Shown here: one piece after another, positions 13,887 through 41,603 of the stretch
Layout of the letters: every line of letters starts with the position of its first letter
How positions within the stretch are numbered: position 1 is the stretch's first letter
Source of the DNA: Treponema sp.
GTDB lineage: Bacteria > Spirochaetota > Spirochaetia > Treponematales > Breznakiellaceae
Direction: 5' to 3'
Assembly: GCA_009785545.1 (NCBI GenBank)
Contig: WQWD01000001.1
Span: forward strand, 1,344 to 65,343
DNA length: 64,000 nucleotides
The notes under the pieces: generated by a model
What the model was told of the DNA's origin: nothing
Database searches by the model: none
What the model saw: only the letters and a program-made list of their open reading frames with translations
Made by a program: the position numbers and the translations under genes

Positions 13887-15755
13887 TTACCTAGCAGTCC
13901 TGGTAAAGCCAAACGCAGTATTCAACTGCGCACTTACAGTATCCCACAGGTTATCTCCATCCGGGTGACCAGCACCAGCACCGGCATCATGTAACATCGA
14001 AGCTCTGGAATAAACTCTGAAATCGTAAATAAAAGAACCGTCAGGAAAGCCTAAGTCCGCATCTCCCCCAGCACCTGAATTTACCAATAGAGATCTACCA
14101 AGATATCCAAAACGAAAGTCCTCCAACTCTGGGTCACCCGACCCATAAATAGGATTGGTTGCCAGCCTGCCGAAGCCTGTATTAAGCGGACCATTCATTG
14201 CCTGATTCCAGTTCCGTAAAATGCGGATATTACCGTTAGGCAGTCTTACAAGAGATATATGCAGCCACTGATCTATACGATGAGCCACGCCCAAACTATC
14301 TCCAACAACAACAGCATGTGGCACTGCATTTTGTGTGCCATCACCTTGACGACCTTGATTGTGACCAAGAGCACCGTGATCTAAGGCTCTTAACCACATA
14401 TTGTTATTTGTAAAGTTTAACGTACCACGCCAATTGTCGGCACTAGTTGTATTAATATTTTCATCATTGCCAAAACTCAACCATGTACCAACAGTGTTAA
14501 CGGGAACACGAACAAAGAACTCTATTGTCCACTCTGATTGCCGCAACAAGGCTCCTACTTTCGGACCAAGATCGATGTAGCCGCCATCACCTAAATTGAT
14601 GAAATACCCATAATTAAATTGCGCAAAACGAGTTTGTTCGCGTTCGCTTTGAGCAACAACCGCACCCCCTCTCAATGTCGGTTGAAAAAACTCGCCAGAC
14701 GGAGCCATGTTCCTAAACACACCGTGCTCATCTACCGCAAAATGTACATTCAGAAACTCTGACCATACAGCACCCTCACGCATTACCCGAACATTCCAAA
14801 CCTCGGTTTCAGACACATTGGAATCAGCTGCACTGGAAAAAGTTCCGGTCAGGGTCAGTTCGGCATGCTCGCTTCCAGAAGGCCGAGTTACAACACCAGC
14901 ATTGCTTAGAACAGCCGTATTACTTGAAACCCAAGTAACGCCCACATAAGAATCTCCTTGCGGAAGATTAATATCAGCGGCAACGGTGCTTAAATCGCCT
15001 AAAGCAACTCCCGCTCTTCTAATCCTGCTTGCAATCAGCGCAGCAACATCAAAAGCCTCAAGCACAGTTAAAGTAAATGTATCTTCATAACTTTGATCAT
15101 TAGCGTCGGTAACCAAAACTCTAAAATATTTTGTACCGTAAGTTAAAGCTGTGGTTCCTACAGTAAGTTCATCGCCATCAATTTCAAACAAGTTATTATT
15201 GTCATCGCCGATTCCGGTTACAAATGTAAATACGAATGGCGCAGTGCCGCCTGTAGCAGTAAAATCACCCACTCTCGCACTTGGAGCTACATTCGATTCA
15301 CCTTCTTGTAAATCGGGAACAGCCTCGAAATTAATTCCGGTTACAAGTACCGGTCCCGGCTGTGTTACAGTTAAAGTAAATGCCTCTTGACGAGTTTGCC
15401 CATTAGCGTCGGTAACCAAAACTCTAAAATATTTAGTACCGTGAGTTAAAGCAGCAGTTCCAACTCTAAGGTCGGTTCCATTAACCGTAAACAGACCGTT
15501 GTTAGTATCACCGGTTCCGGCTGTAAGAGTAAAAGTGAATGGCGCAGTGCCGCCTGTAGCAGTAAAACCGCCAACTCTGGCATTTACGGCTACATTTGAA
15601 GAGCCTTCCTGTAAACCGGAAACAACATTAAACCCAATGCCTGTTACTGAAGGGTGGTTGGGGGGGGCATCATCATTTGGACAGCCAGTAAATAAAACCA
15701 AGCTGAAAACTACCGCACAGATAAGTGCAAAAATAATAATTTTTCTCATTTTCAT
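13887..15755 (-). CDS. Lipoprotein: 2 cadherin-like Ig repeats + atrophied bacterial Ig + LamG/concanavalin-like domain
   Basis: Lipobox FTG-CP. Duplicated 101-aa unit. TWVSSNTAVLSNAGVVTRP (atrophied Ig). GYIDLG..WTIEF..QWLHISL..YLGRS..DFRVYSRA (LamG). Confidence 0.8.
   Translation of the reverse strand: MKMRKIIIFALICAVVFSLVLFTGCPNDDAPPNHPSVTGIGFNVVSGLQEGSSNVAVNARVGGFTATGGTAPFTFTLTAGTGDTNNGLFTVNGTDLRVGTAALTHGTKYFRVLVTDANGQTRQEAFTLTVTQPGPVLVTGINFEAVPDLQEGESNVAPSARVGDFTATGGTAPFVFTFVTGIGDDNNNLFEIDGDELTVGTTALTYGTKYFRVLVTDANDQSYEDTFTLTVLEAFDVAALIASRIRRAGVALGDLSTVAADINLPQGDSYVGVTWVSSNTAVLSNAGVVTRPSGSEHAELTLTGTFSSAADSNVSETEVWNVRVMREGAVWSEFLNVHFAVDEHGVFRNMAPSGEFFQPTLRGGAVVAQSEREQTRFAQFNYGYFINLGDGGYIDLGPKVGALLRQSEWTIEFFVRVPVNTVGTWLSFGNDENINTTSADNWRGTLNFTNNNMWLRALDHGALGHNQGRQGDGTQNAVPHAVVVGDSLGVAHRIDQWLHISLVRLPNGNIRILRNWNQAMNGPLNTGFGRLATNPIYGSGDPELEDFRFGYLGRSLLVNSGAGGDADLGFPDGSFIYDFRVYSRASMLHDAGAGAGHPDGDNLWDTVSAQLNTAFGFTRTAR
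15060..15650 (-). repeat. Intragenic tandem duplication, 303-bp period
   Basis: CATTAGCGTCGGTAACCAAAACTCTAAAATATTT occurs at 15098 and 15401. AATGGCGCAGTGCCGCCTGTAGCAGTAAAA is also duplicated. Confidence 0.9.
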
Positions 15756-15830
15756 TACTCCTATAAATTAAGATAGCTCTTCTTCAAAAAGCAAGCTAAA
15801 TTATTAAATTTACTTTGTACAATATGTAAG

Positions 15831-15848
15831 GTACAAAAGTACTATTTT
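15831..15848 (-). promoter_or_regulatory. Locus operator, copy 1
   Basis: AAAATAGTACTTTTGTAC on the coding strand, about 78 nt before the 15755 start. Confidence 0.75.
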
Positions 15849-18441
15849 ACTCTACATATGAGCCATAAACCGCAAACTGAAAAATAGTGTTGGCACGATC
15901 CCAGTTATGTATGTTGGGACTTTGGTTATTGGAGTTACGGCTGTTCCTTACTCTCTCCACGTTTAGTCTAATAAAGCGGTACGGATTATTATCTGATACC
16001 GTTGTAAACACAAAACCGGGAGCACCGTTGTTGCTTCTGTCTACAATTTGTGTCCAGGTAATGCCGTCCAAACTTCCATCAACAGTGAATACATAGGAAC
16101 CATCAGAGCCAGCTACAGTTTCGTTTGTTAGAGTAATCTCCCTGATAATTGACGGGCGCTCAAGGTCTACCGTCAAATTATGGGGAAATGTCATTTGTGT
16201 ATAACCACCATGCCATGTGGCTATCGCAGGGTTTGGGCGTCTGACTTCTATCCCATCGGTAAGATTTTGCAAACCCACTTGGTTAAATTGCGGAGGAGCG
16301 GTTACGGTCTTTCCCAGCGACAGGAAACGTCCCGGCCTGATCCCAATCAAGCCATGATTGGGATAGAACGCAATGACGTTAAACCAAGCGGAAGACGCAT
16401 GACTCCCATTAACAGCCATTTTTGAAAGACGACGAGGATTACCGGCATTTTCCTGTGCGATATTATTCCAGTGATTAGACCACCGCCAAGAATAAAAACC
16501 ATAAGCCCTTCTTCCATTTCCATAAGCCCACGACGCAAAACCGTTAAATTGTGAACCAAAAGTAACAGCATTTCCAATATCAACCAACGGACTCCATTCT
16601 CCGTCAACACCGGTAGAACTTACCGAAAAGGTGGTTTGCGTAGGATACCAGCCATTTTGCGCAGAAGACCCAAAAAATATATAATTCCCTATGCTTATCA
16701 TATCCGGAGTTTCTCGTGCCCCTTGCCCCGGAAGTGAAAATTCTCTGGAGACGACAGCTACAGGATATCTCCAATTCTGATCAAACTCAATCCAATTTTG
16801 CCTTCCAATAGCGGATGTGAGAGCAATAGGTACTCCGTCAACAAATGTAAATCTCTGATCTCTCGACTCATTCCCAAATGGGCGGCCTGAAAAGGTCATT
16901 TCACCCCAAACATTGCCGCCATTGGTATGAATATGAACAACCATGAGATGAGCCAGCCAATAATGATGAGTTGGCTGCCTATGGCATACAAGTACCCTGC
17001 TTCTCGCTTCATGATTGTTGTACCAGTGGACACCCTCGATTTTTATACCTCGTGCAGCATTCGCAATGATAGATGCTGGAGTTGGCCATTGTACGCCGTA
17101 ATTATCCCAGCTAGGATCATCCATAGTGCCATTGACAGGACCTTCCCAACAGCCAATTATTAAATCTTCCGTTCCACCGGGCGCATTTGGAACACGATGC
17201 CAATTTGACCAGCCTGTCATTCCATTTTCTGACCACCTGTATTCAAAATGAAGACGCCGATCAGCACCGTCACCAGCAGAACTACCGGTGACTTGCGCTC
17301 GGGTATCATACCAACGACCATCTGTCGCTTGCACTCCGCTGGGGCTTGCAGTTCCTGCAATAATAGGAATATGTTGATCACTGGCTTGGTTCGTATTGCT
17401 CCTGATATTACGATAGAACCACGAGCCCGGAGTGGCAGTTGCAACTTCCGCAGTAAAAGTGATTGGCGCAGATTTTATAAGCGCAGGCGGATTGCCTCTA
17501 CCAATGCGGTATGTGAATGTCCTGCCAATTTCCAAATCATAATCTTCGAATGTTGCACCTCGATTGGCTCCTATGAAAACGCCATCTCTGAATATGAAGT
17601 ATTCCTCAGCACCACGAGATGCCCAAGACAGCACAACATTGTTTGCGTTCACAGACATTAGATCAGCAGCAGTGATGTTTGTTGTTATTTGTTCCAGAAT
17701 AGCAAAAGGGGCAACAGTAACATACCATAAGTTTTCATCACTAAAACTTAAATCTGGATATTCATACACGGTTATGTTTCTTGCAATTTCTTCTACTCTG
17801 CCTCTTTCTACTCTTATCGTAATATAACCCGAATTGATAACTACAACATCTATTCTGTAGCGAATATCGCTGTTATCAATATTGACGAGAGTCGGGGCTG
17901 CATTTATCTCACCACTGCCGCCAGTGATAATAATATCTTCCATAGTCAACCCGGGGACTGCTCTGTTAAATTCGATATTTAATTCGGTAGTTTCACGGAG
18001 GTTTTCTCTTCCGTTAGGAGTAACAGTAAATCTGATAATACCCTCATCATGCACTGTTACGGTTCTGGCAGTTGAAACAACCCCTATTTTGTTTATTTGT
18101 ACCGTGATTTGCCCAAACCTGACTACCTCAACGCCAATTCTGTATAAGAAATCATTTTCGTTTATCAGGGGCGTACCTACGTTTACTTCACCACTAACAT
18201 TAGTGATGTTAATATTTTCCATAGTCAAACCGGGTACTGCTTCGGTAAAGAGAATACTTAACTCAGTAGTACTGGCAGTATCCGATCCATTTGCTGAAAC
18301 GAAAAACATGACACTTTCTTCTGTCTCACCATTGTTATTTTCCTCTTCATCAATGTCAGCGTCGCAAGCTGCAAGGAATAGCAGAGCAACAAATACTGCT
18401 GTTAATAATAACTTGAAGCTTTTAAATAATTTTTTCATCAC
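15847..18441 (-). CDS. Lipoprotein: Ig-like repeats + GH43_24-like beta-propeller + F5/8 type C (CBM32-like) domain
   Basis: Lipobox LAA-C. Motifs KIEG, RPFGNESRD, ARETP, SSAQNGWYPTQ and TFGSQ. C-terminal LTVDLE..FTVDGSLDGITWT..YRFIRL. Confidence 0.7.
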   Translation of the reverse strand: MMKKLFKSFKLLLTAVFVALLFLAACDADIDEEENNNGETEESVMFFVSANGSDTASTTELSILFTEAVPGLTMENINITNVSGEVNVGTPLINENDFLYRIGVEVVRFGQITVQINKIGVVSTARTVTVHDEGIIRFTVTPNGRENLRETTELNIEFNRAVPGLTMEDIIITGGSGEINAAPTLVNIDNSDIRYRIDVVVINSGYITIRVERGRVEEIARNITVYEYPDLSFSDENLWYVTVAPFAILEQITTNITAADLMSVNANNVVLSWASRGAEEYFIFRDGVFIGANRGATFEDYDLEIGRTFTYRIGRGNPPALIKSAPITFTAEVATATPGSWFYRNIRSNTNQASDQHIPIIAGTASPSGVQATDGRWYDTRAQVTGSSAGDGADRRLHFEYRWSENGMTGWSNWHRVPNAPGGTEDLIIGCWEGPVNGTMDDPSWDNYGVQWPTPASIIANAARGIKIEGVHWYNNHEARSRVLVCHRQPTHHYWLAHLMVVHIHTNGGNVWGEMTFSGRPFGNESRDQRFTFVDGVPIALTSAIGRQNWIEFDQNWRYPVAVVSREFSLPGQGARETPDMISIGNYIFFGSSAQNGWYPTQTTFSVSSTGVDGEWSPLVDIGNAVTFGSQFNGFASWAYGNGRRAYGFYSWRWSNHWNNIAQENAGNPRRLSKMAVNGSHASSAWFNVIAFYPNHGLIGIRPGRFLSLGKTVTAPPQFNQVGLQNLTDGIEVRRPNPAIATWHGGYTQMTFPHNLTVDLERPSIIREITLTNETVAGSDGSYVFTVDGSLDGITWTQIVDRSNNGAPGFVFTTVSDNNPYRFIRLNVERVRNSRNSNNQSPNIHNWDRANTIFQFAVYGSYVE

Positions 18442-19831: not shown

Positions 19832-19886
19832 TAAAATTCTCCTTTAAAAAATTTTTTACTTTAAAAAATTCCTTACTTTCATTATG

Positions 19887-19939
19887 AGTACCAGCCACAT
19901 TTGGTGACCGGTACTTCTAAACTGAATAACATTCAGTTT
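19887..19939 (-). promoter_or_regulatory. Two tandem stem-loops upstream of barrel gene 1
   Basis: AAACTGAAT-GTT-ATTCAGTTT, then AGTACCGGTCAC-CAAAT-GTGGCTGGTACT with two G-U pairs on the minus strand. Confidence 0.65.
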
Positions 19940-19947
19940 TGTTAAAA

Positions 19948-22900
19948 TTATGGCCTTAGCCGATCCTGGAATGAGTTCAACCATCCAAGCCATTCGTAGT
20001 ACAATCCTGGGTTTTGCTTACCGGGGTTGTGATACCAGTCCATAGAACAACCAAAAGCGTCCTGTAACATCACGTAGTAGTCAATCAGGTTTTGCGGAAA
20101 CCCTGAATAAACCCACATACTTGGCGAAGTACCTCCTGATGAATCTCTTACAGGAGGAGGTGTATCCATCAATGAATTGGCAAAAGGACCTAAATCATAG
20201 ACAAAATCCTGCCATCTCCATTCCTGCATCCACCTTGCGCGAGCTCCTGCAGCACCGTTAGGTGGATGAGGAGCAACAGTTGCACCTGTTGTTGTAACTC
20301 TCATAGGAAGCCAAATATAACGGGCATCGTAGTTTTTAGTATTGTCCCAGCTATCAGCCATGTGGATATATTTGCCCCATACCAGTCTGCCTGCACGAGG
20401 TTCCGGCATAGATGTTTCCCCGAATATTGGACGCAGGTAAATGCCATCATCCCAAAGACGCCTTAGCTCTCCATAGTAAAGCTGAGGAGTATTAAACACA
20501 TTTACATCTATGTCAACAAAGTTAGCATCAAGAAAGCCAATAACATCCCATATATAAGGCGGGAAGCGAAGCTGTTGCACATGAGTAACCTGTCCGTCAA
20601 AACCCTTAGTAATTACAGACCCGTCATCTGCTGCTCCAAACATGAAGGAGCTGGCAGTACCGGTCATAGTCCCTCCAGTCCCCTGAATAGTTATCCAGCC
20701 CGTACTGTTCTGCCATGTACCACCAGGCGGTTGATTATTTGGAGTACCCCAAACAGCATCAAAGTTAGCAGAAACGTTTGTTGTCCCTACAGGCGGCTTA
20801 ATGTTAAAAGGATAAGGCGCACCTAAAATCCTGCCGCCCGGTCGAGAAGTACGGTAAACACCTAACGGATTGGGGAACCAGCCGGTTGAGGTTGAAGAAG
20901 CAACAAAGTAAAGAACATCTTCTCTGACGCCATCTGCATTTAGCGGTGAAAGCGGACCTAAAGTACCGTCAGGATTTACGTATCCTTCATAAGTCATATT
21001 CGGTGTGATGAAATGGACAAATGGTGCTGGAGCCTCCCTCTGCGGACCGAAAACCCAATTGAAATTGTGACCTAACCTGTTGTCGTGACCTTCCAAAAGT
21101 AATTCGTCAGAACTATTACCAACGGAAAAGCGCGGAACCCCAATAAACCTTGTATAGGTTTCATCAAGCATTGTTATTGCCAAAACTCTGTTTTCCTGAG
21201 TGGAACCAAAATGGAAAGCAGTACCGCAACTATCTATAAAAACGCTCTGGTCGCGGGTCATCCCCATATGATTTGTTTGGTCCCAAACACCTTCAACAAA
21301 GGGAAGCTTGTATGACCATAGTTTTTTGAAAGGACCGGCAGGGTGCTGTGCGACAGAAACTGTCACCCTCGCAGTGCCGTAACCAATGCCAATAACACCT
21401 CCTTCAACATGAGTAAACATAACGTACGGGAAAACACCGGTGGAATCCCTAAAAGGTGTAATGGGGTTACCTGTAAGTGCATGTACGCCTGTACCTGCAT
21501 TGTAGATTACTTTTGGCCGCTCAACAGTTGTGCGGTGATTCCACCAACGGTACAATTGCTTGCGCCGCCAAACCGGAGTATCACGATACAAAGCATTGAG
21601 TTGCCGTACTCTTTCCGCAGTCAGCCCCATAGCTCTCGCAAAAGGCCTAGCAGCAGAATCTTGATAAAGATACAACGGTGGGCCAAGTTCTCTATCCGCA
21701 CAACACCCTGTTGGGCAGTCTCTGTGTCTTGTGGGGATAAAATTTCTTATTGCAGCCCATGCATCCATCTGAGCTTGTCTAGGCATGGGACCTCTTAAGA
21801 GTGTTGGTGGATCCCATATCATGTAATCTCCCATATTCTGACCTGATCCATCCGGACTGTTATTTCTCATTCGCCCATTAGGAAACCACTCTCCACCGGG
21901 GGTAATAAAACCGTCTGCGTCCCAATCACCCAGTGTTCTGCGCCAATGGTTCACAGCCCACATAAACCCATGTGTCGCAGTTGTTCCTGCCGGCCAATTA
22001 TCTGCCGGTCGATTGAAACCACTGGCGTTAAATCTGGTACCGTCCCAGCCTCCCGGAAAACCGTTCGGATCATGGGAGTGAGATTCGCGCCATTCCGGTT
22101 CGTCGAATATAGTATTATTGAAAATGGGGAAGGCAACACCTTCATCTCTCCAGTTGTACAAGTCGGCAGAGGAAAATGCGTGAACGCCCGGCTGCCCGCC
22201 TCCTGTCATTGCACTCCAATCAGCAGAGTCGAAACCTCCAACACGAGTCCCCCAGTTTAACCTGCTCTCACCGTACCACCACCATCTTTGTGTGTGGCGA
22301 TCCCACATTAACCCACCTCCATGGGCTGAAACGTGGTTGCCATTGTTGTCAGCCCAAAGTATCTTCTGGGCAAAGCGGTTAAATGTATCGGGTCTTGCAC
22401 GCTGGGCAAAAAGCCTGGCAAAATGGTCGATATTTGTTCTATAAAAATCAATCTGCTCCTGGATTACACCTGCGGAGTTTTCCAAAAACCTTTGTGCATG
22501 ACCACCGTAGTTGATCAAAATAGCATTGGTAAAACCATAATTTGCAGGAAGAGCCGAACGTATCGCATTAGACCTTCTGACACTTTCATACAAACCGGAC
22601 ATATCAACTGTAAAGGGGCGATCTGTCCGGTAGACATGAAGCCTGGAAACTTGTGTAACCATCGACAACCTGCCAGCCCAGTGGTTACGGTAGCCATCAA
22701 GCATACGGAATGTAAGGAAGCGCCCGCTTGCGGAATCAAAAGTTGCAACAAAGCGGTGGTTATCTCCCTGATCCGGTCTGATAATCAGATTTGCTGTCCG
22801 CTCAAGGACACGCCACCAACCAAAACCAACCCGTCTATCCATTGGAAATTCATCGCCGGGCAAAATGGGAGTGTCGGTCAGGAAAATCTCGAATACCGTT

Positions 22901-24421: not shown

Positions 24422-24916
24422 TTAGTTTAACCTTGATAATAAATCACCAAATCGATCCGTAAAGCTATCAACCTCTGCTTGATAATTAAAAAATTGAATA
24501 GCTTGTGCTGACGTTAAAATACTGGTTGGGTTTTCCGGAACATTTAAATAATGGTATGCCCCCTTAGTAATTCTTACACCTTCATCGTCATATACGCCAT
24601 GCATCATCTCATGGAGCATTCTGGTTCGGATAGGGTGGCCTTTAACAACAGTAAACGTATTAATACCTATCTCGTAGAGTTGCTCTAAACGCTCTACTTC
24701 AATTTGTATACTTGCAATTATCCCTCCCCCGGATATTATTGCATCCACCTCTGCTCTCCATTCATTGCGATCTTGAGTACGAGCATTCCGCTGTGCATCA
24801 GTGAGTATCAGCAAATTCAGGGTTTCGATAAAATCAGAGTCGTTTTCAAAGCCGCAAGCAGCAAAAAACAAAATGACAATAAGCGGCAAGAAAAACCAAT
24901 TCAATTTTTTTCTCAT
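24422..24916 (-). CDS. Small helical lipoprotein, unknown function
   Basis: Lipobox FAA-C, AGGAG RBS, sits within the operon. Confidence 0.7.
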   Translation of the reverse strand: MRKKLNWFFLPLIVILFFAACGFENDSDFIETLNLLILTDAQRNARTQDRNEWRAEVDAIISGGGIIASIQIEVERLEQLYEIGINTFTVVKGHPIRTRMLHEMMHGVYDDEGVRITKGAYHYLNVPENPTSILTSAQAIQFFNYQAEVDSFTDRFGDLLSRLN

Positions 24917-24946
24917 AAATTATTTTCTCCTAAAAATATGTACATT

Positions 24947-24985
24947 TGAGGCTGCTCCAAAACTACAGTTTCTGGAACAACCTCA
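24947..24985 (-). repeat. REP-like palindrome (AAACT/AGTTT core family)
   Basis: TGAGGTTGTTCCAGAAACT-GT-AGTTTTGGAGCAGCCTCA. Similar to the elements at 43123 and 43197. Confidence 0.75.
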
Positions 24986-24995
24986 TTTATCCTAA

Positions 24996-28880: not shown

Positions 28881-28922
28881 GATCTTATCAGAGTTTTAAT
28901 TTATTTAATTTTGGAGGAGAGT

Positions 28923-32117: not shown

Positions 32118-32124
32118 CAACAAC

Positions 32125-32174
32125 ACCCCCGCTCTTAACCGGGCGGGGGTTATCCATGGCTTTTGCCGTGGGAT
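32125..32174 (+). promoter_or_regulatory. Two tandem stem-loops upstream of barrel gene 2
   Basis: ACCCCCGCTC-TTAACC-GGGCGGGGGT and ATCCATGGC-TTTT-GCCGTGGGAT, with G-U pairs on the plus strand. No long U-tract. Confidence 0.7.
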
Positions 32175-32201
32175 TATTAAAAATCAATAAGGAAAAAATA
32201 A

Positions 32202-33842: not shown

Positions 33843-33852
33843 GAGGATGAAA

Positions 33853-36543
33853 ATGAAAAATAAAATTTGGAAAACCGGCCTGCTTCTGGCAGCCATGATT
33901 TTAATCTTTGGTTTGTTTACTGCTTGCCCAAATGATAGCCCGGAAGAGGACATAGTAGTACCAACCGTTACAGGAGTAACAATAGAACCTGAAATGGTTA
34001 TGGTTGAACGTGCTAACGCCGTACAATTGAGGGCAACAGTAGAAGGAACCAACAATCCCAGCCAAAGTGTTACTTGGTCAATCCTTAATCCCGGCATACA
34101 TGGGAGTACAATGATTACACCTCAGGGGTTACTTGTAATAAATGCAGACGAACCGTTAGGCAGACTTGACGTTAGGGCAACTTCGACTGTAGACGAAAAC
34201 TTTTATGGGACAAACATGGTATTGGTATTCGACCATGGTCAAATACCGGAAATAACACATATAACGATAACCGGACAAAACAATGTGGTGCAAGGGCAAG
34301 ATATTTCATTCACTGCACAAGTACATGGAGATAACAATCCTCCGCAATATGTTACTTGGTCAATTCTTGAAACTACAAGACCATCTACCGTAATCACTAC
34401 AGGTGGCGTACTTACCGTGTCTCCCAACGAAACACTCGAGGAACTTACAATACAGGCAGCCTCTACGCTTGTTCCGGTCATTAATCTGACAACAACAGTA
34501 ACTGTTGCACCAAACGGTGAAATAAATTTGGTTGAAACTGATTGGGATTACTTACTTGAAACAGGCGGTTTCAGAGTAAGTATTAATACTGCCAACCAGT
34601 TTCAGGAAATGCTCGGTTTTGGCGCTTCCGACGCTTGGTCGGGGAACTTTTTGGGTCAATGGGGGCATCCAACTCCTTTCCATGGAATTGGCGTTACCGT
34701 ACCCCTTAACCATAGCCCTCCTGCCGGCTGGGGAGCAGCAGAAGTTGAAGCGATAAAACAACAAATGGCAGACTGGCTTTTTAGTCAGGATTTTTATGAA
34801 GATGGTAATCCACGAGGGGTTGGGCTTTCCGAATGGAGAGTTTACCTTGGTGCAGGCAGCTTAGATCAGAGGTTAAGGGGCAGAGACTCAAGGATAGGTA
34901 ATATAAACCTTAATAATTTTGCCAACAATATCGGAGAATGGGAGCGTAACGCAGAAAGTTTCTTCCGTGATATTGATAATCCATGGTTAGGTCATACCGG
35001 CTGGGCAAGACCCGCAGAAAACCCTACAATGGATCTCTGCTTTGACACAAAACAAATTGGTACGCAGTTCTGGATGAGAGAAGCCAGAAAAAGAGGCGTT
35101 GAAATGCTTGTAGGTTTTATGAAAAGCGCACCGGTACCTTTTACCATTAATGGTTTTGCGAACAATTCATTAAATGGTAATCTGAATTTTCAAACCGGCA
35201 GATATCCTATGTTAAACAACACCGGGAACATACATGAAAATCATTTTGCGTCTTTTGGAGAATACATGGCTAATGTAGCAAACCATTTTGCTGCAATAAC
35301 CGTTCCAAACACTCGTTATAACGACAGATTCCCTGACAGAGCAGCAAATGCCCGAGAACTTACCATGCGTCTGAATTATCTTTCACCGATCAACGAACCT
35401 CAATGGGAATGGAATGAAGACAAGCAGGAAGGGTCAAGAACCTCCAACGCAAATATAGCAAGAGTTGTCAGAGCACTTGATACGGCAATTATGGACTCAA
35501 GCCGACCCAATATAGGCAACCCAAGAAACCCCACAGGAAACCAAAACCATCTTGACACCCAGATACTTATAACAGAATCAGCTCAGTGGGACTTCCTTTC
35601 CGGCGGCGATCCCGGCAATATACGCGACCAGATCCAGACGTTTTTTAACCCAGCTGATCCTCAAGGGAATTTTGTAGGTGACCTCCCTACAATGCAGCCG
35701 CGAAAAATCGCAGGGCATACCTACTTTACTCACCCGAACGACGCTGTAGCTGTATCTATTCGCGCGGCTGTTGCAGCAAGAGCTAATCAGTTTCCAGGAC
35801 CTGACGGTCCCATACAAGTATGGAGTACCGAATTCTGCGGGCTTCAGGGCGGAAGTGGCCTTGCCACTCCTTCTGAATACTTCGGTATGGCACTGTTTAT
35901 GAACAAACTTGCGCATCAGGATATTGTTCATGCCAACTCCAGAACATTCTCTTTCTGGACAGCTTTCGACATGGAAAGGGGCGGTCAAGCAAGGTACTCC
36001 TTAATCGCATACGCACCGGGGGAAGCTGTTTTCCGTCATGACGCTAACGTAGATCATCCAATTACAAGACCCGGCGCAGCAAGAACCCAGGCTACTCTTT
36101 GGGCGCTTGGTCACTACAGCCTTTTTGTCCGACCTGGTTTTACTCGTGTTGAAGTTTTAGCACCGGGTATGCCTGCAGACCGCAGACTCAATCACCATCC
36201 CGGCAGTGACTACGTAACTCGCCCAATGGCGACAGCATACGTTTCTCCTCCGGGTTTTAGAGACTTCGTAACAGGCAGAGAGGTTAATCGTGTCGTAGTT
36301 GTGTATACCAATATGTCAACTCGCAGTTTTAATCTTGCCGGTGAAATCGACAATGGCACTAAGATACCGTACAATGTCCGTGTTTTTTTGACCCATGCCG
36401 GCAATGTTAACGGCGGCATCTCCACAGCTCCCAGCAACCAGACAGGTCTTAGGGGGATGGAGCTCCAGCCAAATGATCATGGGATATTCCACATCCCGGC
36501 ACGTTCCATGGTTACCGTAGTGTATGATTTTCCGGTAGATTGA
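33853..36543 (+). CDS. Lipoprotein: 2 Big_2-like Ig domains + GH30 catalytic domain (possible beta-1,6-galactanase)
   Basis: Lipobox FTA-CP. Motifs QEMLGFGASDAW, GLSEWRVYLGAGS, YLSPINEPQWEW (acid/base), VWSTEFC (nucleophile) and LGHYSLFVRPG. ATG 33853 fits AGGAGG spacing. Confidence 0.82.
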   Translation: MKNKIWKTGLLLAAMILIFGLFTACPNDSPEEDIVVPTVTGVTIEPEMVMVERANAVQLRATVEGTNNPSQSVTWSILNPGIHGSTMITPQGLLVINADEPLGRLDVRATSTVDENFYGTNMVLVFDHGQIPEITHITITGQNNVVQGQDISFTAQVHGDNNPPQYVTWSILETTRPSTVITTGGVLTVSPNETLEELTIQAASTLVPVINLTTTVTVAPNGEINLVETDWDYLLETGGFRVSINTANQFQEMLGFGASDAWSGNFLGQWGHPTPFHGIGVTVPLNHSPPAGWGAAEVEAIKQQMADWLFSQDFYEDGNPRGVGLSEWRVYLGAGSLDQRLRGRDSRIGNINLNNFANNIGEWERNAESFFRDIDNPWLGHTGWARPAENPTMDLCFDTKQIGTQFWMREARKRGVEMLVGFMKSAPVPFTINGFANNSLNGNLNFQTGRYPMLNNTGNIHENHFASFGEYMANVANHFAAITVPNTRYNDRFPDRAANARELTMRLNYLSPINEPQWEWNEDKQEGSRTSNANIARVVRALDTAIMDSSRPNIGNPRNPTGNQNHLDTQILITESAQWDFLSGGDPGNIRDQIQTFFNPADPQGNFVGDLPTMQPRKIAGHTYFTHPNDAVAVSIRAAVAARANQFPGPDGPIQVWSTEFCGLQGGSGLATPSEYFGMALFMNKLAHQDIVHANSRTFSFWTAFDMERGGQARYSLIAYAPGEAVFRHDANVDHPITRPGAARTQATLWALGHYSLFVRPGFTRVEVLAPGMPADRRLNHHPGSDYVTRPMATAYVSPPGFRDFVTGREVNRVVVVYTNMSTRSFNLAGEIDNGTKIPYNVRVFLTHAGNVNGGISTAPSNQTGLRGMELQPNDHGIFHIPARSMVTVVYDFPVD

Positions 36544-36556
36544 AAAAATGAATAAG

Positions 36557-36620
36557 TACCAATGCAAAACTGCGAACCTCCGGTTGCGAACCTCCAGTTC
36601 GGGTTAGTTTTGCATTGGCA
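36557..36620. repeat. REP-like palindrome with an internal 14-bp direct repeat
   Basis: CCAATGCAAAACT...AGTTTTGCATTGG enclosing GCGAACCTCCRGTT twice. The loop matches the 43123 element on the opposite strand. Confidence 0.7.
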
Positions 36621-36622
36621 GT

Positions 36623-36650
36623 AACGGGGCTGAAATGCCCCGTTTTTTTT
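36623..36650 (+). terminator. Rho-independent terminator after the GH30 gene
   Basis: AACGGGGC-TGAAAT-GCCCCGTT followed by a T-run. Confidence 0.85.
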
Positions 36651-36683
36651 GTTATTATATTTTGTTGTCAAAGGAAAATGCGA

Positions 36684-37163
36684 ATGAAAAAATTGTCATT
36701 TTTATTTTTTTTAATTGTTTTTATCTTGTCTTCTTCAGGCTGTTCACGCTCTGAAAATTTTAAAAATATTAATTTTTCCGAAGTTGTAATAATTGAAGGT
36801 GTTTATCAAGAAGAATTATTTAGCAGAATTAGTATGTGGGTTAGGTTTACTTTCAGAAGATCGCTTTCTTACATTCTTCATGGCAATGCTGACGAGGGAA
36901 TAATAAAATTAAGATATGTTTACAGAACACTTATAGAAAGGAACACAACTGATATAATATCAATTATTACATTGGAAGTAAGAGATGAAGAATATACAAT
37001 TACATTCAGCGATGCTTCTTTTCAGGTGTATGACGATGAAGGTCTGCCTTACGGAGAAGAAACAAGCCTTCCTTCACAAGATATAGCCGATATGCTTATC
37101 TTTCAATGGAAAAGCCTTGCTGATGATTTGAAACAAGTTGTTCTCCGCTTTCCATCTGAATAA
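36684..37163 (+). CDS. DUF4468-like lipoprotein
   Basis: Start moved to MKKLSF (AAGGA RBS). Lipobox SSG-C. EVVIIEG..EELFSRI..W...F...GIIK...LEVRDEEYTITFSD pattern. Confidence 0.65.
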   Translation: MKKLSFLFFLIVFILSSSGCSRSENFKNINFSEVVIIEGVYQEELFSRISMWVRFTFRRSLSYILHGNADEGIIKLRYVYRTLIERNTTDIISIITLEVRDEEYTITFSDASFQVYDDEGLPYGEETSLPSQDIADMLIFQWKSLADDLKQVVLRFPSE

Positions 37164-37183: not shown

Positions 37184-39124
37184 ATGATGATAAATAAGAA
37201 GAATTTTTGGCTTTACCTAATCTTAATAGCCGTCATGTGTTTGTTCGCTTCTTGCCCTGACGGAGAAATTGAAGAAAAAAACATTCTATCTGTTATGCCT
37301 GAAATTAACCCAACTACGGTATCTAAAACCGATAATCCACAGCAAGAAGTGCGTTTTACCATAGTTGGGGATTTACCTGCAGAAGGAGCTTTTTTTAGAG
37401 TATATGCCAGCCTGTTTGCTCCAACTGAACACGGGACAGTTATCGCCGTATTGGAAGACAATTATTTGGTACTTAAAGCAAATAACGGTGTTCCGGCGAG
37501 TACCTTTTTTGTTACCGTTACCGAGCCGGGTAAAACGGCAAGCACACGGACTGCTCTGACTGTTTTAGATGTTCCGATAGGGAATGTCATACGCCTGCTC
37601 GGAGACAGCATCGTAGTACTTGCCGGGCAAACAGCGCAGCCTCCTGCAAAGCATATACCGCAAGAAATCGATGTCAATACTCAAGCATGGAGTTCCAGTG
37701 ATCCATTCGTGGCGGCTGTTGATCCGGCTACCGGTGAAATAAGTGCAGTATCCGGAGGAAGAGCAAAGATTCTTCTTACGGTAAACGACCAATATTTTGC
37801 ATCTCGTGACATTATCGTGGTAACAACCTCAACTTTACCGGTTTTGCGCCTTTCTATACTCCCATGGACTAACGACTCTCAGTCAAATGCTAACCAAGAT
37901 ATGCTTAACAGAAATAACTGGAGAAGTACATCTGTTTCTTTGAGCAACACCGGTAATCCGGAGTGGGATTTTACCAGAACAGACGGGCAGGCTCGTGGGC
38001 GAGGAAATTCAACTTGGAATAATATGGGGCTTAAACGTCCGTTTAATTTCAGATTTCCCAATAGCGCATGGCAATCCATACTCGGGAGCGGCGAGGTCGG
38101 ACGGAGCTGGAGAGTGGTCGCTAACACAATTGACTTTTCTCACTTTAGAAACTTTTCAGCATATTTTCTTGGCTCGCAGTTAAGTTTTGACTGGACTGTT
38201 AACGCATGGTTTGCTCATGTATATTTTGATAACAACAGATATTGGGGAGTCTATTCAATTCATGACGAATTACGTGATGCCAGTGAGGGACGCCTTAATC
38301 TGAACGTCAATATGGAAAACCCTTCACAGAGCGAGTTTTTATTGGAGTGGGACAGGCACCCAGCCGGCTCCGCTGTCAGGTTTCACGTTTCCAATAATAG
38401 GGATCCGTTTGGCAGGGGAAATATCCCTTTTAATATTGATATCCCCGATCTCGAAGACATTCCGAATTGGAACACCCATCCTCATTTTATCTGGGTAAGA
38501 GATTTTGTAACAAGTGTGAATACTGCCATAACAAGCAGGAACTTTGCCGAAATATCTAACCTGATTGATCTTCCCACATTTGTTGATATGTATCTGGTAA
38601 ACGAGCTTTTCAAAAATCGTGATGTGGGCTTTTCGAGTATGTTCTTCCAGGTTAGGCAAACACCTGCCGGCCCCCGAATGGTTGGGGGACCTATTTGGGA
38701 CTTTGACCAGACTTCCGGCGGTGTTGTAGACAATCAATACACCGGTTATTCGCCCACAGACGGACCTAATAACGGAGCTTGGGCAGCATGGGACAATCCG
38801 TGGTTTAGAGACCTTATGGAGGTTCCGGAATTCAGACAGATGGTTGTAGATCGCTGGAAAGAAATACGGGATAATCAGGTTGAATCCATGATTCGGCAAA
38901 TCAGACCGTTGGCAGCCTTTTATCAGAATTGTTTTAACCGCAACTTTGCCCAAGGCGGACAGAACGCCGCTGACCGCCATTCATGGACAGCTATGGCAAA
39001 TGGAGCCAACATATTCCGTCAACCGCAAACAATCAGAAACCTTCGCACTCATACAGAGCAGGTTGACAACCTTGTAAACTGGTTTGAGCAACGCAGAATC
39101 TGGATGGATGATTTCTTGCAGTAA
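37184..39124 (+). CDS. CotH kinase family lipoprotein with Big_2 domain
   Basis: Lipobox FAS-CP. Motifs RGRGNSTW..KRPF..RF, W..VAN..D.S.FRN, YWGVY, FVDMYLVNELFKNRD, GPIWDFD and WFEQRRIWMD. Confidence 0.85.
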   Translation: MMINKKNFWLYLILIAVMCLFASCPDGEIEEKNILSVMPEINPTTVSKTDNPQQEVRFTIVGDLPAEGAFFRVYASLFAPTEHGTVIAVLEDNYLVLKANNGVPASTFFVTVTEPGKTASTRTALTVLDVPIGNVIRLLGDSIVVLAGQTAQPPAKHIPQEIDVNTQAWSSSDPFVAAVDPATGEISAVSGGRAKILLTVNDQYFASRDIIVVTTSTLPVLRLSILPWTNDSQSNANQDMLNRNNWRSTSVSLSNTGNPEWDFTRTDGQARGRGNSTWNNMGLKRPFNFRFPNSAWQSILGSGEVGRSWRVVANTIDFSHFRNFSAYFLGSQLSFDWTVNAWFAHVYFDNNRYWGVYSIHDELRDASEGRLNLNVNMENPSQSEFLLEWDRHPAGSAVRFHVSNNRDPFGRGNIPFNIDIPDLEDIPNWNTHPHFIWVRDFVTSVNTAITSRNFAEISNLIDLPTFVDMYLVNELFKNRDVGFSSMFFQVRQTPAGPRMVGGPIWDFDQTSGGVVDNQYTGYSPTDGPNNGAWAAWDNPWFRDLMEVPEFRQMVVDRWKEIRDNQVESMIRQIRPLAAFYQNCFNRNFAQGGQNAADRHSWTAMANGANIFRQPQTIRNLRTHTEQVDNLVNWFEQRRIWMDDFLQ

Positions 39125-39140
39125 AAAACAAAAATTATTA

Positions 39141-39180: not shown

Positions 39181-39185
39181 ATTTC

Positions 39186-41603
39186 TTAATTTCCGTTCAA
39201 AATTGCCAATGTTGCAGGAATATCCAAAGTCGCTATCTGGTCTTCGGATATTGCACCACTGTAAATCCTGAAATCAGCGAAGAAGGTTCTTGGCACAAAA
39301 TTGTCGTTATTAAAACAGGGGCGGCCAATTCGGTTAAACGTCAGGCTGCCCATTTCTGTTGTTCTATGGGGAATCACTCCGGTTTCTTCAGGAATACCGT
39401 TAATGTAAATAGTTGCGAATTCTCCGCTCTGCCGAACCATTACGTGAATCCATTGTTGCCTTGGCAAATGCATACCGGTACGCACAAATCTTTCTCCTAA
39501 CGGGTTGCCAGCTCCCGCCCAGCCGCTTCTGGAAATTGTGTGCTGGGTATCAGTTGCCCTAAACCAAATTACAGGCTCCGTGCCTCCCGCATGGCTCGCT
39601 CCTGAGAATGACCAAAGGAACCTGCCAGCACCGGTCCAATTTGAAGGTTGATCAATGTATACAAAAGAAGCGATGGTAAAATCATCCTGCGAAGTAATAA
39701 GGGAGCCCGCTGCTGAACCCATATCGATCCATGCAGGAGAGTCACCTCCGCCGGTTCCGCCTTGCCCTGCTCCGGGATTAGTTCCGGTGTCAGTTCCGGT
39801 ATGAAAAGTACCTATTCCGTTATGGATTCCCAAACCGGATTCCGGAGAAGCAGTTCTCATTATAACCCCGTTATGAGTACCGGGATTTGCTCTATTGGTA
39901 ATACTGTCTGCGGTATCGCCGTCACCAGCGTTGAATGTAAAATGCAATGTCAACGGAGCAGGATCAGTTACCACCGGGGGTGTCAAAATTCCCGGCCACG
40001 CCTGATAATTCTGCAAATGATAAAATTCTTCCTGTGTAATAGGAATTATTGAGCCGTGTCGAGGATTAAAGCCGGTCGTTCCTAATATCCCGCGTGTACT
40101 CCAATTAACAAGATCGGTACTTGTTCTAACCCCCCATGCGGGAGCTGCTGTACGACTGTACATATCATAGGCAAGTACGAAGGTGTCGGTACCAAAAAGC
40201 CTGAACACCTGAGCTCCTTCTACAGATTCGGTTTCCATGCAAACATGGTCGGCTACCCATTCCCAGCCTGTATGCAGATCCCGTGATCGTGCTAATGACA
40301 TACGGCTTTGAGGTCCGGGTATTCCGGGTTGGCTTCCCTCGTTTTTGTAGATCATATGGTAATACCCGCCAAGATTAGTGATGTTTCCATCAATCGTACT
40401 TCGTCCATGCGGATGTATAAACAAACGTTGTGGCAATTCAACAAGATCGGTAAAATCTTCATTTGCATATGTAAAATATATTCTATGCGGAGTCCACCCT
40501 ACCCTGGCATGAGAATAAAAAATCATATATCTACCGGTTCTGCGATCAAAATTAACTTCAGGAGCCCAGGCTGTATAAATATCACCGAACTCCGCTGGCC
40601 ATTTTTCAGCTATATTAATTGCGCTATGTGTCCAATCTGTAAGATTTGCTGATCTGGATAAAATAATACCACGATTTGAGTTCCAGCCGAGTGAAGACCG
40701 CATATCGGTATTGACCATTAAAAAACCCCCTTCATGGCTGCGAATAATAAAGGGATCACGCATACCGCCGGCAGAGGCAACCTCTTCGGCAAGAATGACC
40801 GGTCTGTTTCTGTTCAGGGTAGTAAAGTTAAGCCCGTCCCTGCCTATGGCAAAACGCACTTGTTCCCCAGCAGGGGCGTCTCCGGTAAAATATGCCATTA
40901 AGTAGCCGTAGAACTCATATTCTTGGGCAGTTATTTCAAACGATTTGGTATCGCTGGCAGAACCTTTTTGAATTGTTGCAGTCAAATTGAATGTAAACAC
41001 ACCTGTTACGGTATCTCGTATTCTGACTCTCTTTGTTCCGGCAGCAATTCCATCAACGATAGGGTAATTGGCATTGTCGCTTACCCATGTTATATTAGAA
41101 CCTCTGGCACCTGTCGTAGGCAGCATTATTTCGTGATAAAAATAACTTAACCAAGTGTCTATTTGCAAATCCGCCGTATCCTGTTCAACTATATAGTCCA
41201 GGTCAGCTACTACTACAACGGCAACAATAGTGCTCGTTACGGATTGCACCCGAACCCCGGAAACAGAGTTATCGGTATTGGTGACAACGACATAATAGAA
41301 GGTCGTGCCTAGAGTATCAGTAGGCGGCGTGAATGTACTGTTGGTCGCTGAGTTAATCGCAACAGCACCTGTAGTACTGCTTCCGCTATTACTGAACCAT
41401 TGGTAAGAAAGAATACCGCCGCCTTCTACAACTGCAGTTACAGACAAGGGAGCAGCAACTTCGCCCAAAATGACTTCATCTCCAACAGGCTGGACGGTTA
41501 TTTCTGGTACGGCGGCATTTTCAAGCCCTGGTTCTTCGTCAGCTCCGTTGCAAGCTGCTGCAAACAGCAGCACTAACACAGCAAAAAACAAAATTTTCTT
41601 CAT
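39186..41603 (-). CDS. Lipoprotein: Ig + atrophied Ig + GH43 (BT3655-like arabinosidase) + LamG
   Basis: Lipobox AAA-C. Motifs YLMAYFTG, GGMRDPFIIR, AWAPE, STIDGNI, SVEG and PRHGSIIPIT. C-terminal LamG. Confidence 0.85.
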   Translation of the reverse strand: MKKILFFAVLVLLFAAACNGADEEPGLENAAVPEITVQPVGDEVILGEVAAPLSVTAVVEGGGILSYQWFSNSGSSTTGAVAINSATNSTFTPPTDTLGTTFYYVVVTNTDNSVSGVRVQSVTSTIVAVVVVADLDYIVEQDTADLQIDTWLSYFYHEIMLPTTGARGSNITWVSDNANYPIVDGIAAGTKRVRIRDTVTGVFTFNLTATIQKGSASDTKSFEITAQEYEFYGYLMAYFTGDAPAGEQVRFAIGRDGLNFTTLNRNRPVILAEEVASAGGMRDPFIIRSHEGGFLMVNTDMRSSLGWNSNRGIILSRSANLTDWTHSAINIAEKWPAEFGDIYTAWAPEVNFDRRTGRYMIFYSHARVGWTPHRIYFTYANEDFTDLVELPQRLFIHPHGRSTIDGNITNLGGYYHMIYKNEGSQPGIPGPQSRMSLARSRDLHTGWEWVADHVCMETESVEGAQVFRLFGTDTFVLAYDMYSRTAAPAWGVRTSTDLVNWSTRGILGTTGFNPRHGSIIPITQEEFYHLQNYQAWPGILTPPVVTDPAPLTLHFTFNAGDGDTADSITNRANPGTHNGVIMRTASPESGLGIHNGIGTFHTGTDTGTNPGAGQGGTGGGDSPAWIDMGSAAGSLITSQDDFTIASFVYIDQPSNWTGAGRFLWSFSGASHAGGTEPVIWFRATDTQHTISRSGWAGAGNPLGERFVRTGMHLPRQQWIHVMVRQSGEFATIYINGIPEETGVIPHRTTEMGSLTFNRIGRPCFNNDNFVPRTFFADFRIYSGAISEDQIATLDIPATLAILNGN

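Follow-up and report, generated by a model that had tools for sequence, protein, structure and literature searches.

How do oligosaccharides cross the outer membrane of the treponemes that live in termite guts? In wood-feeding termites the gut is dominated by treponemes of this family, to which much of the hemicellulose breakdown is attributed, and in the literature searched we found no description of the outer-membrane step. The question is raised by a stretch of 64,000 nucleotides from a Treponema sp. of the Breznakiellaceae (hereafter the window), whose positions 13887-41603 encode two porin-like beta-barrels, barrel 1 (P0001) and barrel 2 (P0002), among 12 lipoproteins that include stalked enzymes and lectins. 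We read these barrels, with a probability of roughly 0.6, as oligosaccharide channels in a scheme in which lipoproteins on the cell surface would cut the glycan, the barrels would pass the products and ATP-binding cassette (ABC) systems would import them.

A lipoprotein-rich locus with two modelled barrels

The window lies on contig C1 of a metagenome-assembled genome (MAG) of 2.65 Mb in 379 contigs, which is 80% complete. Its DNA is found in termite-gut metagenome runs, two of which, possibly the source of the assembly, contain the stretch 28911-36543, for which no RNA run was listed, and the named relatives of its proteins are MAGs of Treponema sp., Spirochaetia or Spirochaetaceae. The initial annotation had described a polysaccharide utilization locus (PUL) built from barrel porins, lipoprotein enzymes and lectins, and every countable feature of that description was confirmed. 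Between 13887 and 41603 the open reading frame (ORF) listing gives 14 genes in three transcription directions, co-directional or divergent (Table 1). Their N-termini reveal exactly 12 lipobox products, where about 12 had been counted (FTGC, LAAC, LLSC, FTTC, FAAC, LVSC, FIAC, FTAC, FTAC, SSGC, FASC and AAAC), and two proteins with a signal peptidase I (SPI) signal, which are the barrels. The stalks of immunoglobulin (Ig) type are present on the lipoproteins as aBig_2, Big_2 and Flg_new_2 domains in Pfam, and so are the heads, with glycoside hydrolase (GH) family 30 (GH30_2), GH43, LamG and discoidin domains recognised by Pfam and GH43_24 by PDB sequence matches. Pfam also bears out the proposed flanks of three ABC sets, four signal-less glycosidases and one two-component system.

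Both SPI-signal proteins are orphans at the level of annotated families, with no Pfam or NCBIfam family at E <= 0.01 and no relevant PDB sequence match at E <= 10. Among 5.8e9 protein clusters we found 22 relatives plus one marginal match for barrel 1 and 15 relatives besides itself for barrel 2, and AlphaFold2 models were built on the family alignments. The two models are all-beta, with a predicted local distance difference test score (pLDDT) of 80.5 and a predicted TM-score (pTM) of 0.75 for barrel 1, and with values of 63 and 0.67 for barrel 2, where the C-terminal half is confident and the long loops are uncertain. When they were compared with the PDB by Foldseek, the top 50 matches of each were all outer-membrane beta-barrels, nearly all of them porins. 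VIA-align, a structural search independent of Foldseek, placed the 18-stranded sugar porins LamB and ScrY in the lead for both models (barrel 1: LamB Z 20.6 with 345 aa aligned, ScrY 19.6, E. coli ChiP 19.5; barrel 2: LamB Z 18.7 with 332 aa aligned, ScrY 17.3). OprD/Occ channels trail LamB by up to about 2 Z units (Z 18-19 to OpdQ, OccD2 and OccAB3), and TonB-dependent receptors, Omp85 and FadL rank far lower.

In the models the barrel extends from about residue 27 to the C-terminus, without a plug and without a periplasmic domain, and the DSSP strings hold about 18-22 strand elements, a count that is unreliable. The neighbours in a language-model atlas are porin clusters, with a TprK/MOSP cluster at rank 44. 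The C-terminus of the P0001 family is conserved as ...TVSW and the consensus of the P0002 family ends in ...NLF, which we read as typical of outer-membrane proteins. The proposal that the SPI-signal proteins are transmembrane barrels is thus upheld for two of them, since AlphaFold2, Foldseek and VIA-align all give porin-type barrels, and we consider it very probable that they are outer-membrane barrels. A third such protein, barrel 3 (P0004), belongs to a separate module at 57.5-64 kb and has 14 relatives besides itself; its homology to barrel 1 points to a porin-like transmembrane barrel as well. Between the profiles of barrels 1 and 2, hhalign gives E 3.9e-4 at a probability of 36%, which leaves their homology unproven, and the only stretch that aligns, residues ~120-170 of P0001, is also the most conserved segment of that protein. 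Direct BLASTP among the three barrels gives E 0.007 for P0001 against P0004 and non-significant values for the other pairs.

We found no TonB_dep_Rec, Plug, SusD or TonB match by Pfam in the window, as the initial annotation had reported. The whole MAG contains one TonB-dependent receptor (contig C68), which lies inside a FecCD/Peripla_BP_2/ABC_tran operon, together with one TonB_C and two ExbD outside the window, and SusD (PF07980) has no match in this 80%-complete genome, a search in which the control genome was positive. Provisionally, these searches point to no rival outer-membrane glycan route in the MAG.

Gene order and distribution of the barrel families

On the contigs of barrel-1 relatives, at 35-51% identity, we always found the same gene order, namely a ~350-aa protein, a ~1070-1130-aa protein, the barrel and a ~600-660-aa GH43/discoidin protein. 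A 347-355-aa protein occupies the position of the 311-aa lipoprotein in three of the four full-length contigs of relatives, and a 1066-1131-aa protein without a Pfam match precedes the barrel in all four, where the window has its 1163-aa GH43_24-like lipoprotein; in a further locus (L029) a 952-aa ORF lies upstream of the barrel-1 homologue and the contig then ends. For the family as a whole, a protein of ~950-1160 aa precedes the barrel in 6/6 contexts and in 4/4 contexts with a visible downstream gene that gene encodes a GH43/discoidin protein. Homologues of the 864-aa lipoprotein hold this barrel-adjacent position in loci L001 and L002/L003, and on the contig of the relative P0020 the gene downstream of the barrel encodes 663 aa and matches discoidin weakly. 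The wider surroundings of L002 comprise LamG proteins, an FGE-sulfatase and CotH.

Barrel 2 is equally constant in its company, as a GH30_2 gene comes directly next in 5/5 contexts (the window, L005, L006, L007/L008 and L049), down to 38% identity. The gap between the two genes is 4-17 bp in the window and in L005-L007, with the window's own GH30 gene beginning 4 bp past the barrel, and in L049, the relative at 38% identity, the GH30_2 gene lies 346 bp downstream and is split in two. The module in L049 is accompanied by a DUF3502-type ABC set, a GH2 enzyme and a HisKA_3 kinase, and GH2 and ABC genes also stand near the barrel in L007. For barrel 3, a large upstream protein, the barrel and a 430-500-aa downstream protein recur in L050 and L051, and in L052 the downstream protein has 163 aa; the large flanking proteins of these relatives lack Pfam matches, and in L051 an ABC set directly follows the module. 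As these gene orders are found again in relatives with 35-50% identity, the locus is more than a chance assembly.

The layout had also been said to recur at 57.5-64 kb of the window as a reusable module, and it does, with an fn3/GH18-like protein, barrel 3, an EndoH/EndoF-like lipoprotein, a TPR protein and a leucine-rich repeat (LRR) protein in order. The fn3-bearing protein continues past the window edge and has 1328 aa in the contig as a full ORF with a lipobox; it gives a weak GH18 match (8U47, 2.6e-6) over 35 residues only. The 497-aa lipoprotein of EndoH/EndoF-like fold reads LDGFEIWDIDG at the DxxDxDxE-type catalytic motif of EndoH, with Ile at the position of Glu; it may be a pseudo-enzyme that only binds and that pairs with the GH18-like protein upstream. 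At the position of the TPR lipoprotein L050 has a 204-aa gene. Elsewhere the module appears with other enzymes again, GH28 and discoidin proteins being examples: L045 has a barrel between discoidin/CHB_HEX lipoproteins, and in L032 (3177-6412; G593:C73) tandem barrels lie by a GH28 protein with CBM_X2 and two large lipoproteins, which looks like a pectin-type form of the module.

The same conservation speaks for a different explanation, in which the barrels are dedicated partners of the flanking lipoproteins, either in a TonB-independent docking 'utilisome' or as a Slam-like device for surface delivery or anchoring. The order of large lipoprotein, barrel and GH lipoprotein is strictly kept in three barrel families with downstream gaps of 4-25 bp, the type of enzyme stays constant within each barrel subfamily at identities of 35-50%, and the long, poorly modelled loops of P0002 could serve as docking sites; moreover, we know of no route by which spirochaetes export lipoproteins to the surface. 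Yet the proteins are wholly barrel, without a periplasmic TPR or POTRA-like domain, the best structures are 18-stranded sugar porins and not 14-stranded Slam-type or 16-stranded Omp85-type barrels, and paralogues lie by TctABC transporter and binding-protein genes or, in many cases, as orphans, which fits channels. A complex prediction with alignments given, for the barrel-1 homologue P0013 (residues 22-449) and its downstream GH43/discoidin lipoprotein P0202 (40-607), scored 0.00 against a mark of 0.32, a result that speaks neither for nor against binding. We regard this partner role as rather unlikely. One more specific form of it, also unlikely though deserving attention, would have each barrel in a stable, TonB-independent surface complex with both flanking lipoproteins, a passive 'utilisome' with GH43_24 or GH30 releasing oligosaccharides directly above the pore; display of these lipoproteins on the surface might also be brought about by the barrel or by a tether signal specific to the lineage. 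If so, the complex would have evolved independently of SusCD as its counterpart, and would offer a first way into glycan capture, and possibly into the surface export of lipoproteins, in spirochaetes.

How far does the linkage to carbohydrate-active enzymes (CAZymes) reach? Homologues had been expected to be CAZyme-linked, and this proved true of the barrel-1, -2 and -3 subfamilies, which are tightly linked, and not of the superfamily at large, in which many distant members are single genes among housekeeping genes. The barrel-1 profile matches 161 representatives at E <= 0.001 among 1.84 billion. The label 'spirochaete-specific' did not survive, as in a sample of 400 Spirochaetota genomes the profile occurs in 0/396 genomes of other families; within its own family it is found in 32/200 genomes, and in 22/66 genera counting the window's own, and the barrel-2 profile in 38/200 genomes. 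As far as sequence can see, the barrels are specific to one lineage of termite-gut treponemes.

In a maximum-likelihood tree the orphan barrels form a tight clade of 10 (support 99/99), one per genome, and the locus-embedded barrels stand on long branches outside it. Three further paralogues occur in the genome of the window itself: one (C47, 29-1546; L055) beside a TctABC tricarboxylate transporter, a second (C275, 175-498; L054) beside a Metallophos phosphoesterase lipoprotein, and a third (C22, 7688-9250; L053) flanked by a DUF3502 binding protein on one side and a 1140-aa fn3 lipoprotein on the other, not far from an FGE-sulfatase lipoprotein. Since paralogues adjoin other uptake systems and the tree has an orphan core, a channel role is favoured over that of an enzyme-specific chaperone or translocon. 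We read the barrels as a lineage-restricted porin superfamily, with a conserved core whose members look like general porins and with fast-evolving, specialised offshoots that would have been recruited into uptake loci, a relation comparable to that of OmpF to LamB/ChiP or to the OprD family.

An orphan clade kept in housekeeping contexts could instead mean that the barrels of this locus are general porins or structural outer-membrane proteins merely co-located in a lipoprotein-rich island, and such neighbours are not rare, as the MAG has ~100 large Lys-poor candidate lipoproteins by a regex-based count. Against co-location stand the subfamily-specific synteny, kept to 38% identity and across differing flanks, the operon-like spacing, the operator shared upstream of barrel-containing transcription units (see below) and the long branches of the locus-embedded barrels outside the orphan clade. 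We judge it very improbable.

Predicted substrate, surface location and regulation

The 1163-aa and 864-aa lipoproteins on either side of barrel 1 have no significant GH Pfam match, yet both match solved GH43_24 exo-beta-1,3-galactanases in PDB sequence searches, the former 6EUG (3e-16), 6EUF (3e-8) and 3VSF (1e-8) and the latter 3VSF (Ct1,3Gal43A) at 7e-5. In the 864-aa protein two Ig-like stalk repeats and an fn3-like domain accompany the GH43_24-like domain and a C-terminal discoidin domain (F5_F8_type_C, Pfam). The 898-aa GH30 lipoprotein behind barrel 2 matches 3CLW (1e-24), its sole solved relative, which is uncharacterised, and the 805-aa lipoprotein gives Glyco_hydro_43 at 1.9e-8 and Laminin_G_3 at 4e-12 in Pfam. 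For the head of the 622-aa lipoprotein there is no significant PDB sequence match and no fold recognisable by sequence. The CotH domain of the 646-aa lipoprotein, an atypical kinase fold, is also present in the homologous locus L002 (16860-18509).

Because of the two GH43_24-like proteins, a parts list like that of bifidobacteria (see below) and the rhamnose catabolism genes that adjoin the barrel-2 module in L006, type II arabinogalactan is most probably the substrate, and we hold with good confidence that this is a co-regulated glycan locus, probably for arabinogalactan. Inside the cell, the signal-less DUF2264 protein, which we take to be a CAZy GH154 beta-glucuronidase, an equivalence that our literature search did not confirm, is a putative trimming enzyme, and the 1053-aa protein is possibly a GH106-type alpha-L-rhamnosidase. 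In the scheme that we favour, stalked surface lipoproteins (GH43_24-like, GH30 and GH43, with LamG or discoidin heads) would bind the polymer and degrade it into oligosaccharides, and P0001 and P0002 would act as plug-less, TonB-independent, substrate-specific diffusion channels like LamB, ScrY or ChiP. Barrel 1, between GH43_24-like enzymes, and barrel 2, before GH30, would pass the products of the neighbouring enzymes, lipoprotein binding proteins and ABC permeases would import them, and the cytoplasmic GH2, GH51, DUF2264 and possible rhamnosidase proteins would complete the breakdown.

A surface location is suggested by two considerations, that a polymer cannot cross a porin and that the residues following the lipid-anchored Cys differ in composition between two groups of lipoproteins. 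The tethers of the 12 locus lipoproteins are acidic and Pro/Asn/Gly-rich, with a net charge of -1 to -6 over eight residues, whereas the binding-protein lipoproteins have Arg at +2 or +3 and a mean charge of +0.3 (n=6). Examples are CRRDE, CERDR and CQRRP in binding proteins and CPNDD, CDADIDEEE and CPNDSPEED in GH or lectin lipoproteins. This contrast may be a sorting signal. The lipoprotein enzymes could also be periplasmic, with oligosaccharides freed by gut microbes or the host entering through the barrels and being processed before ABC import. Two observations favour such an arrangement: exported proteins, the certainly periplasmic binding proteins included, are equally Lys-poor, so that composition does not separate the compartments, and GH43_24 enzymes of Bacteroides act in the periplasm too (PMC13712309). 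It is disfavoured by the triple LamG and discoidin heads, long Ig stalks, CotH and sizes of 800-1160 aa, which we consider typical of polymer-capturing surface proteins, by the systematic difference from binding-protein tethers, and by the cytoplasmic exo-glycosidases, which already cover oligosaccharide trimming. We consider a periplasmic placement distinctly unlikely.

As side observations on composition, the Lys content of exported proteins across the window (the barrels, the LRR protein and the lipoproteins, ABC binding proteins among them) is 0-1.7%, with 1.5-2.6% in two small lipoproteins, compared with 5-10% in cytoplasmic proteins, and Arg is at 5-7% in exported and cytoplasmic proteins alike. 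The difference in Lys holds on other contigs too. Lys depletion was rejected as a surface marker because the binding-protein lipoproteins are equally poor in it. The ORF at 22-1146 resembles exported proteins in composition (Lys 1.2%, Arg 9.9%) and lacks a signal peptide at the listed start, which may be mis-set.

A shared promoter element ties the transcription units together. The strict 14-mer pattern GKNACWAAAGTACT has four copies in the 2.65-Mb assembly, all in promoter gaps of this locus, and each of the two divergent gaps holds one further inverted, variant copy (two variants in total). Both lipoprotein/barrel arms are linked by it to the GH43-LamG gene and to two of the ABC sets. Because the 14-mer is unique in the genome to these four gaps, the cluster is probably one regulon. 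A candidate for the protein that binds this operator-like element is the NarL-type response regulator at 46224-46913, whose two-component system would probably drive the regulon through it.

In most intercistronic gaps (19832-19947, 24917-24995, 32118-32201, 36544-36650, 43117-43248 and 61192-61340) the mRNA strand folds into strong hairpins, one to three per gap, with z of -4.4 to -7.9. A barrel-specific signal was rejected, equally strong hairpins being found 3' of a binding-protein gene and elsewhere, and we treat them as general mRNA-processing or stability elements. Between the arabinogalactan regulon and the GH18 module, positions 50928-54245 encode a coiled-coil-like protein of 1105 aa, with 20% D+E, 10% K, an N-terminal membrane anchor and no family.

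Several points weigh against the barrels being arabinogalactan-oligosaccharide channels fed by surface enzymes. Similarity of fold is no proof of function, and barrel 2 is modelled with modest confidence (pLDDT 63). The finding of no SusD is provisional in a MAG that is 80% complete, the argument for surface exposure combines logic with a tether contrast drawn from just 6 binding proteins, and the GH30 assignment of the 898-aa lipoprotein stops at the level of the family. In L001 the barrel-1 module stands beside GH88, a heparinase-II/III-like protein, KduI and an ABC set, so that the substrate of the family is not uniformly arabinogalactan. Of 21 sampled distant members of the superfamily, only 3 lie no more than 400 bp from a large lipoprotein, the background among ORFs being 14 of 153, and linkage of barrels to lipoproteins is therefore a property of the subfamilies and not of the fold family.

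Table 1. Features of the window discussed in the text (positions count from the first letter of the window; E-values follow the domain or structure matched).
Feature	Position	Strand	Evidence and remarks
DUF2264 protein, signal-less	1100-3091	-	DUF2264 1e-105 and DUF2264_C (Pfam); Lys 5.2%
1053-aa protein, signal-less	3306-6467	+	Weak N-terminal NCBIfam match to alpha-L-rhamnosidase BT4145, 3.8e-8, far under cut-off; no Pfam match
Cytoplasmic GH51-type alpha-L-arabinofuranosidase	6481-7983	-	Alpha-L-AF_C 6.8e-46 (Pfam)
ABC set 1: DUF3502-type binding lipoprotein and two permeases	7985-11385	-	DUF3502/SBP_bac_1, BPD_transp_1; lipobox MSSC
Cytoplasmic GH2 glycosidase	11425-13824	-	Glyco_hydro_2_N/2/2_C, DUF4982, Glyco_hydro2_C5 (Pfam)
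622-aa lipoprotein	13887-15755	-	Lipobox FTGC; stalk aBig_2 5.9e-10 (Pfam)
Operator-like 14-mer GGTACAAAAGTACT	15830-15843	+	Upstream of the 622-aa gene, gap 15756-15846
864-aa lipoprotein	15847-18441	-	Lipobox LAAC; directly downstream of barrel 1
Barrel 1 (P0001), 454 aa	18467-19831	-	SPI signal; ends ...GIVVSW; porin-like beta-barrel model
Intercistronic gap before barrel 1	19832-19947	-	Three hairpins; RNA fold -32.2 kcal/mol, z -4.8
1163-aa lipoprotein, GH43_24-like domain(s)	19948-23439	-	Lipobox LLSC; directly upstream of barrel 1
311-aa lipoprotein	23458-24393	-	Lipobox FTTC; weak discoidin F5_F8_type_C 6.8e-5, under cut-off
164-aa lipoprotein	24422-24916	-	Lipobox FAAC; no Pfam match, no known family
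785-aa lipoprotein	24996-27353	-	aBig_2 1.4e-33, 4 stretches (Pfam)
433-aa lipoprotein	27386-28687	-	Three InlB-B-repeat-like domains, Flg_new_2 5.8e-32 (Pfam)
Divergent promoter gap	28688-28910		Two inverted motif copies: GTGACAAAAGTACT at 28758-28771, other near 28.84 kb
1068-aa lipoprotein, upstream of barrel 2	28911-32117	+	Laminin_G_3 3e-32, three concanavalin-like LamG stretches, plus aBig_2
Intercistronic gap before barrel 2	32118-32201	+	Two GC-rich hairpins; RNA fold -34.7 kcal/mol, z -5.2
Barrel 2 (P0002), 546 aa	32202-33842	+	SPI signal; long low-confidence loops; porin-like beta-barrel model
898-aa GH30 lipoprotein, Big_2/Ig stalk	33847-36543	+	Glyco_hydr_30_2 8.9e-56 (Pfam)
182-aa DUF4468 lipoprotein	36615-37163	+	DUF4468 1.4e-5 (Pfam)
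646-aa CotH lipoprotein, Big_2 stalk	37184-39124	+	CotH 8.4e-26 (Pfam)
805-aa lipoprotein	39186-41603	-	aBig_2 stalk, GH43-type five-bladed propeller, C-terminal LamG (Pfam)
Divergent promoter gap	41604-41814		Two inverted motif copies: GTTACTAAAGTACT at 41673-41686, other near 41.75 kb
ABC set 2: binding lipoprotein and two permeases	41815-44954	+	SBP_bac_8/1, BPD_transp_1 x2 (Pfam)
Two-component system: HisKA_3 kinase and NarL/LuxR-type response regulator	44926-46913	+	Pfam
ABC set 3: binding lipoprotein and two permeases	46944-50014	-	Pfam; motif in promoter gap at 50116
Motif GTTACAAAAGTACT	50116-50129		Gap 50015-50201, promoter of ABC set 3
TPR lipoprotein, end of second module	57508-58161	-	Weak TPR matches (Pfam); lipobox FSSC
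497-aa lipoprotein, EndoH/EndoF-like GH18 fold	58155-59648	-	8U46 1.3e-18, EndoH 1e-8, EndoF1 1.5e-6 (PDB)
Barrel 3 (P0004), 509 aa	59662-61191	-	SPI signal; distant barrel-1 homologue, barrel-1 profile E 5.6e-9
fn3-bearing exported protein, upstream of barrel 3	61395-63998	-	fn3 (Pfam); continues past window edge

Comparison with known uptake systems

Compared with the outer-membrane proteins already known from spirochaetes, Treponema MOSP/Tpr and Borrelia P66, the barrels share the beta-barrel architecture, and the TprK/MOSP cluster is among their atlas look-alikes; they differ in having no MOSP_N or MOSP_C Pfam match and in being found only in one termite-gut lineage. To our knowledge, no spirochaetal outer-membrane family has been described as embedded in CAZyme operons. 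A Slam translocon joins an N-terminal periplasmic TPR domain to a 14-strand DUF560 barrel and adjoins the lipoprotein that it exports; the barrels here do adjoin lipoproteins, they show no DUF560 or TPR match in Pfam, and their models are barrel from about residue 27 onwards. Slam structures are absent among the structural matches listed for the barrels, which by itself does not exclude a similarity. OprD is not matched in Pfam either, and the TctABC-adjacent paralogue resembles the genomic logic of Occ-type channels. On sequence the barrels fall outside the LamB, OprD and MOSP families, and their modelled fold resembles LamB and OprD.

The closest parts list is that of the bifidobacterial pathway for type II arabinogalactan, in which extracellular GH43_24 enzymes with F5/8-type-C, Ig and InlB-repeat modules are combined with ABC import of arabinogalactan oligosaccharides and with intracellular GH2, GH51, GH154 and rhamnosidases (PMC13712309). 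Our locus shares both this list and its grammar of accessory domains. It departs from it in belonging to a diderm spirochaete, in the two dedicated outer-membrane barrels inserted in its operons and in the anchoring of the enzymes, by lipid here and by wall or transmembrane anchors there.

With the SusC/SusD PULs and 'utilisomes' of Bacteroidota the locus has in common stalked lipoprotein enzymes and glycan binders, apparently co-regulated, around an outer-membrane barrel, paralogous modules per glycan, a local sensor/regulator and a barrel next to a lipoprotein, as SusC stands by SusD (PMC7618045). CAZymes, binders and sensor/regulator are indeed co-localised, and co-regulation is read from the shared 14-mer. 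The locus has, however, no TonB-dependent receptor, plug or SusD, its barrels of 450-550 aa are porin-sized, so that uptake would be passive, and inner-membrane import would use ABC systems with lipoprotein binding proteins and not carriers of the major facilitator superfamily (MFS) type. The features tested rule out the SusC/SusD type. In this lineage, automatic predictors of PULs or CAZyme clusters keyed on SusC/SusD or on known families of transporters would overlook the part in the outer membrane.

The initial annotation had proposed a third design, and this has to be given up, since a surface enzyme, a specific porin and a periplasmic-binding-protein ABC importer are an established combination in proteobacteria. 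Examples are PulA/LamB/MalEFGK of Klebsiella, ChiP of Vibrio and E. coli, in an arrangement of chitinases, ChiP and chitobiose ABC, CymA with the cym operon of Klebsiella oxytoca, KdgM/TogMNAB of Dickeya, and ScrY. These regulons and the locus have in common a depolymerase, a plug-less, TonB-independent and pathway-encoded barrel, a binding-protein ABC importer and internal trimming, and LamB and ScrY are the top structural matches for both barrel models, with E. coli ChiP third for P0001. As in the LamB/ScrY family, the barrels are encoded with uptake genes, adjoining GH43_24-like or GH30 lipoproteins and ABC sets. They differ in having no Sugar_porin, OprD or KdgM Pfam match and no detectable sequence kinship, in their host phylum, with the unusual outer membranes of spirochaetes, in barrel genes placed directly beside multi-domain lipoprotein enzymes, with 12 lipoproteins around two barrels, and in a channel role that is here predicted.

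What appears new is a set of barrel families without an annotated relative, restricted to termite-gut treponemes and fixed between multi-domain lipoprotein enzymes in dense lipoprotein surroundings; the literature searches turned up no spirochaetal CAZyme locus described as linked to a porin. Novelty would thus lie in lineage and protein families and not in uptake logic. For the question raised at the outset, the locus provides candidate channels in three barrel families without a Pfam model, each with a conserved enzyme partner, along with a candidate operator and regulator and a possible lipoprotein sorting signal, and it is a plausible answer to how wood-digesting bacteria without SusC/SusD take up plant-gum sugars. 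In comparison with the known systems, it would extend the proteobacterial design of a specific porin plus ABC importer, with lipoprotein-anchored enzymes, to a lineage of spirochaetes, and would not be a wholly new one.

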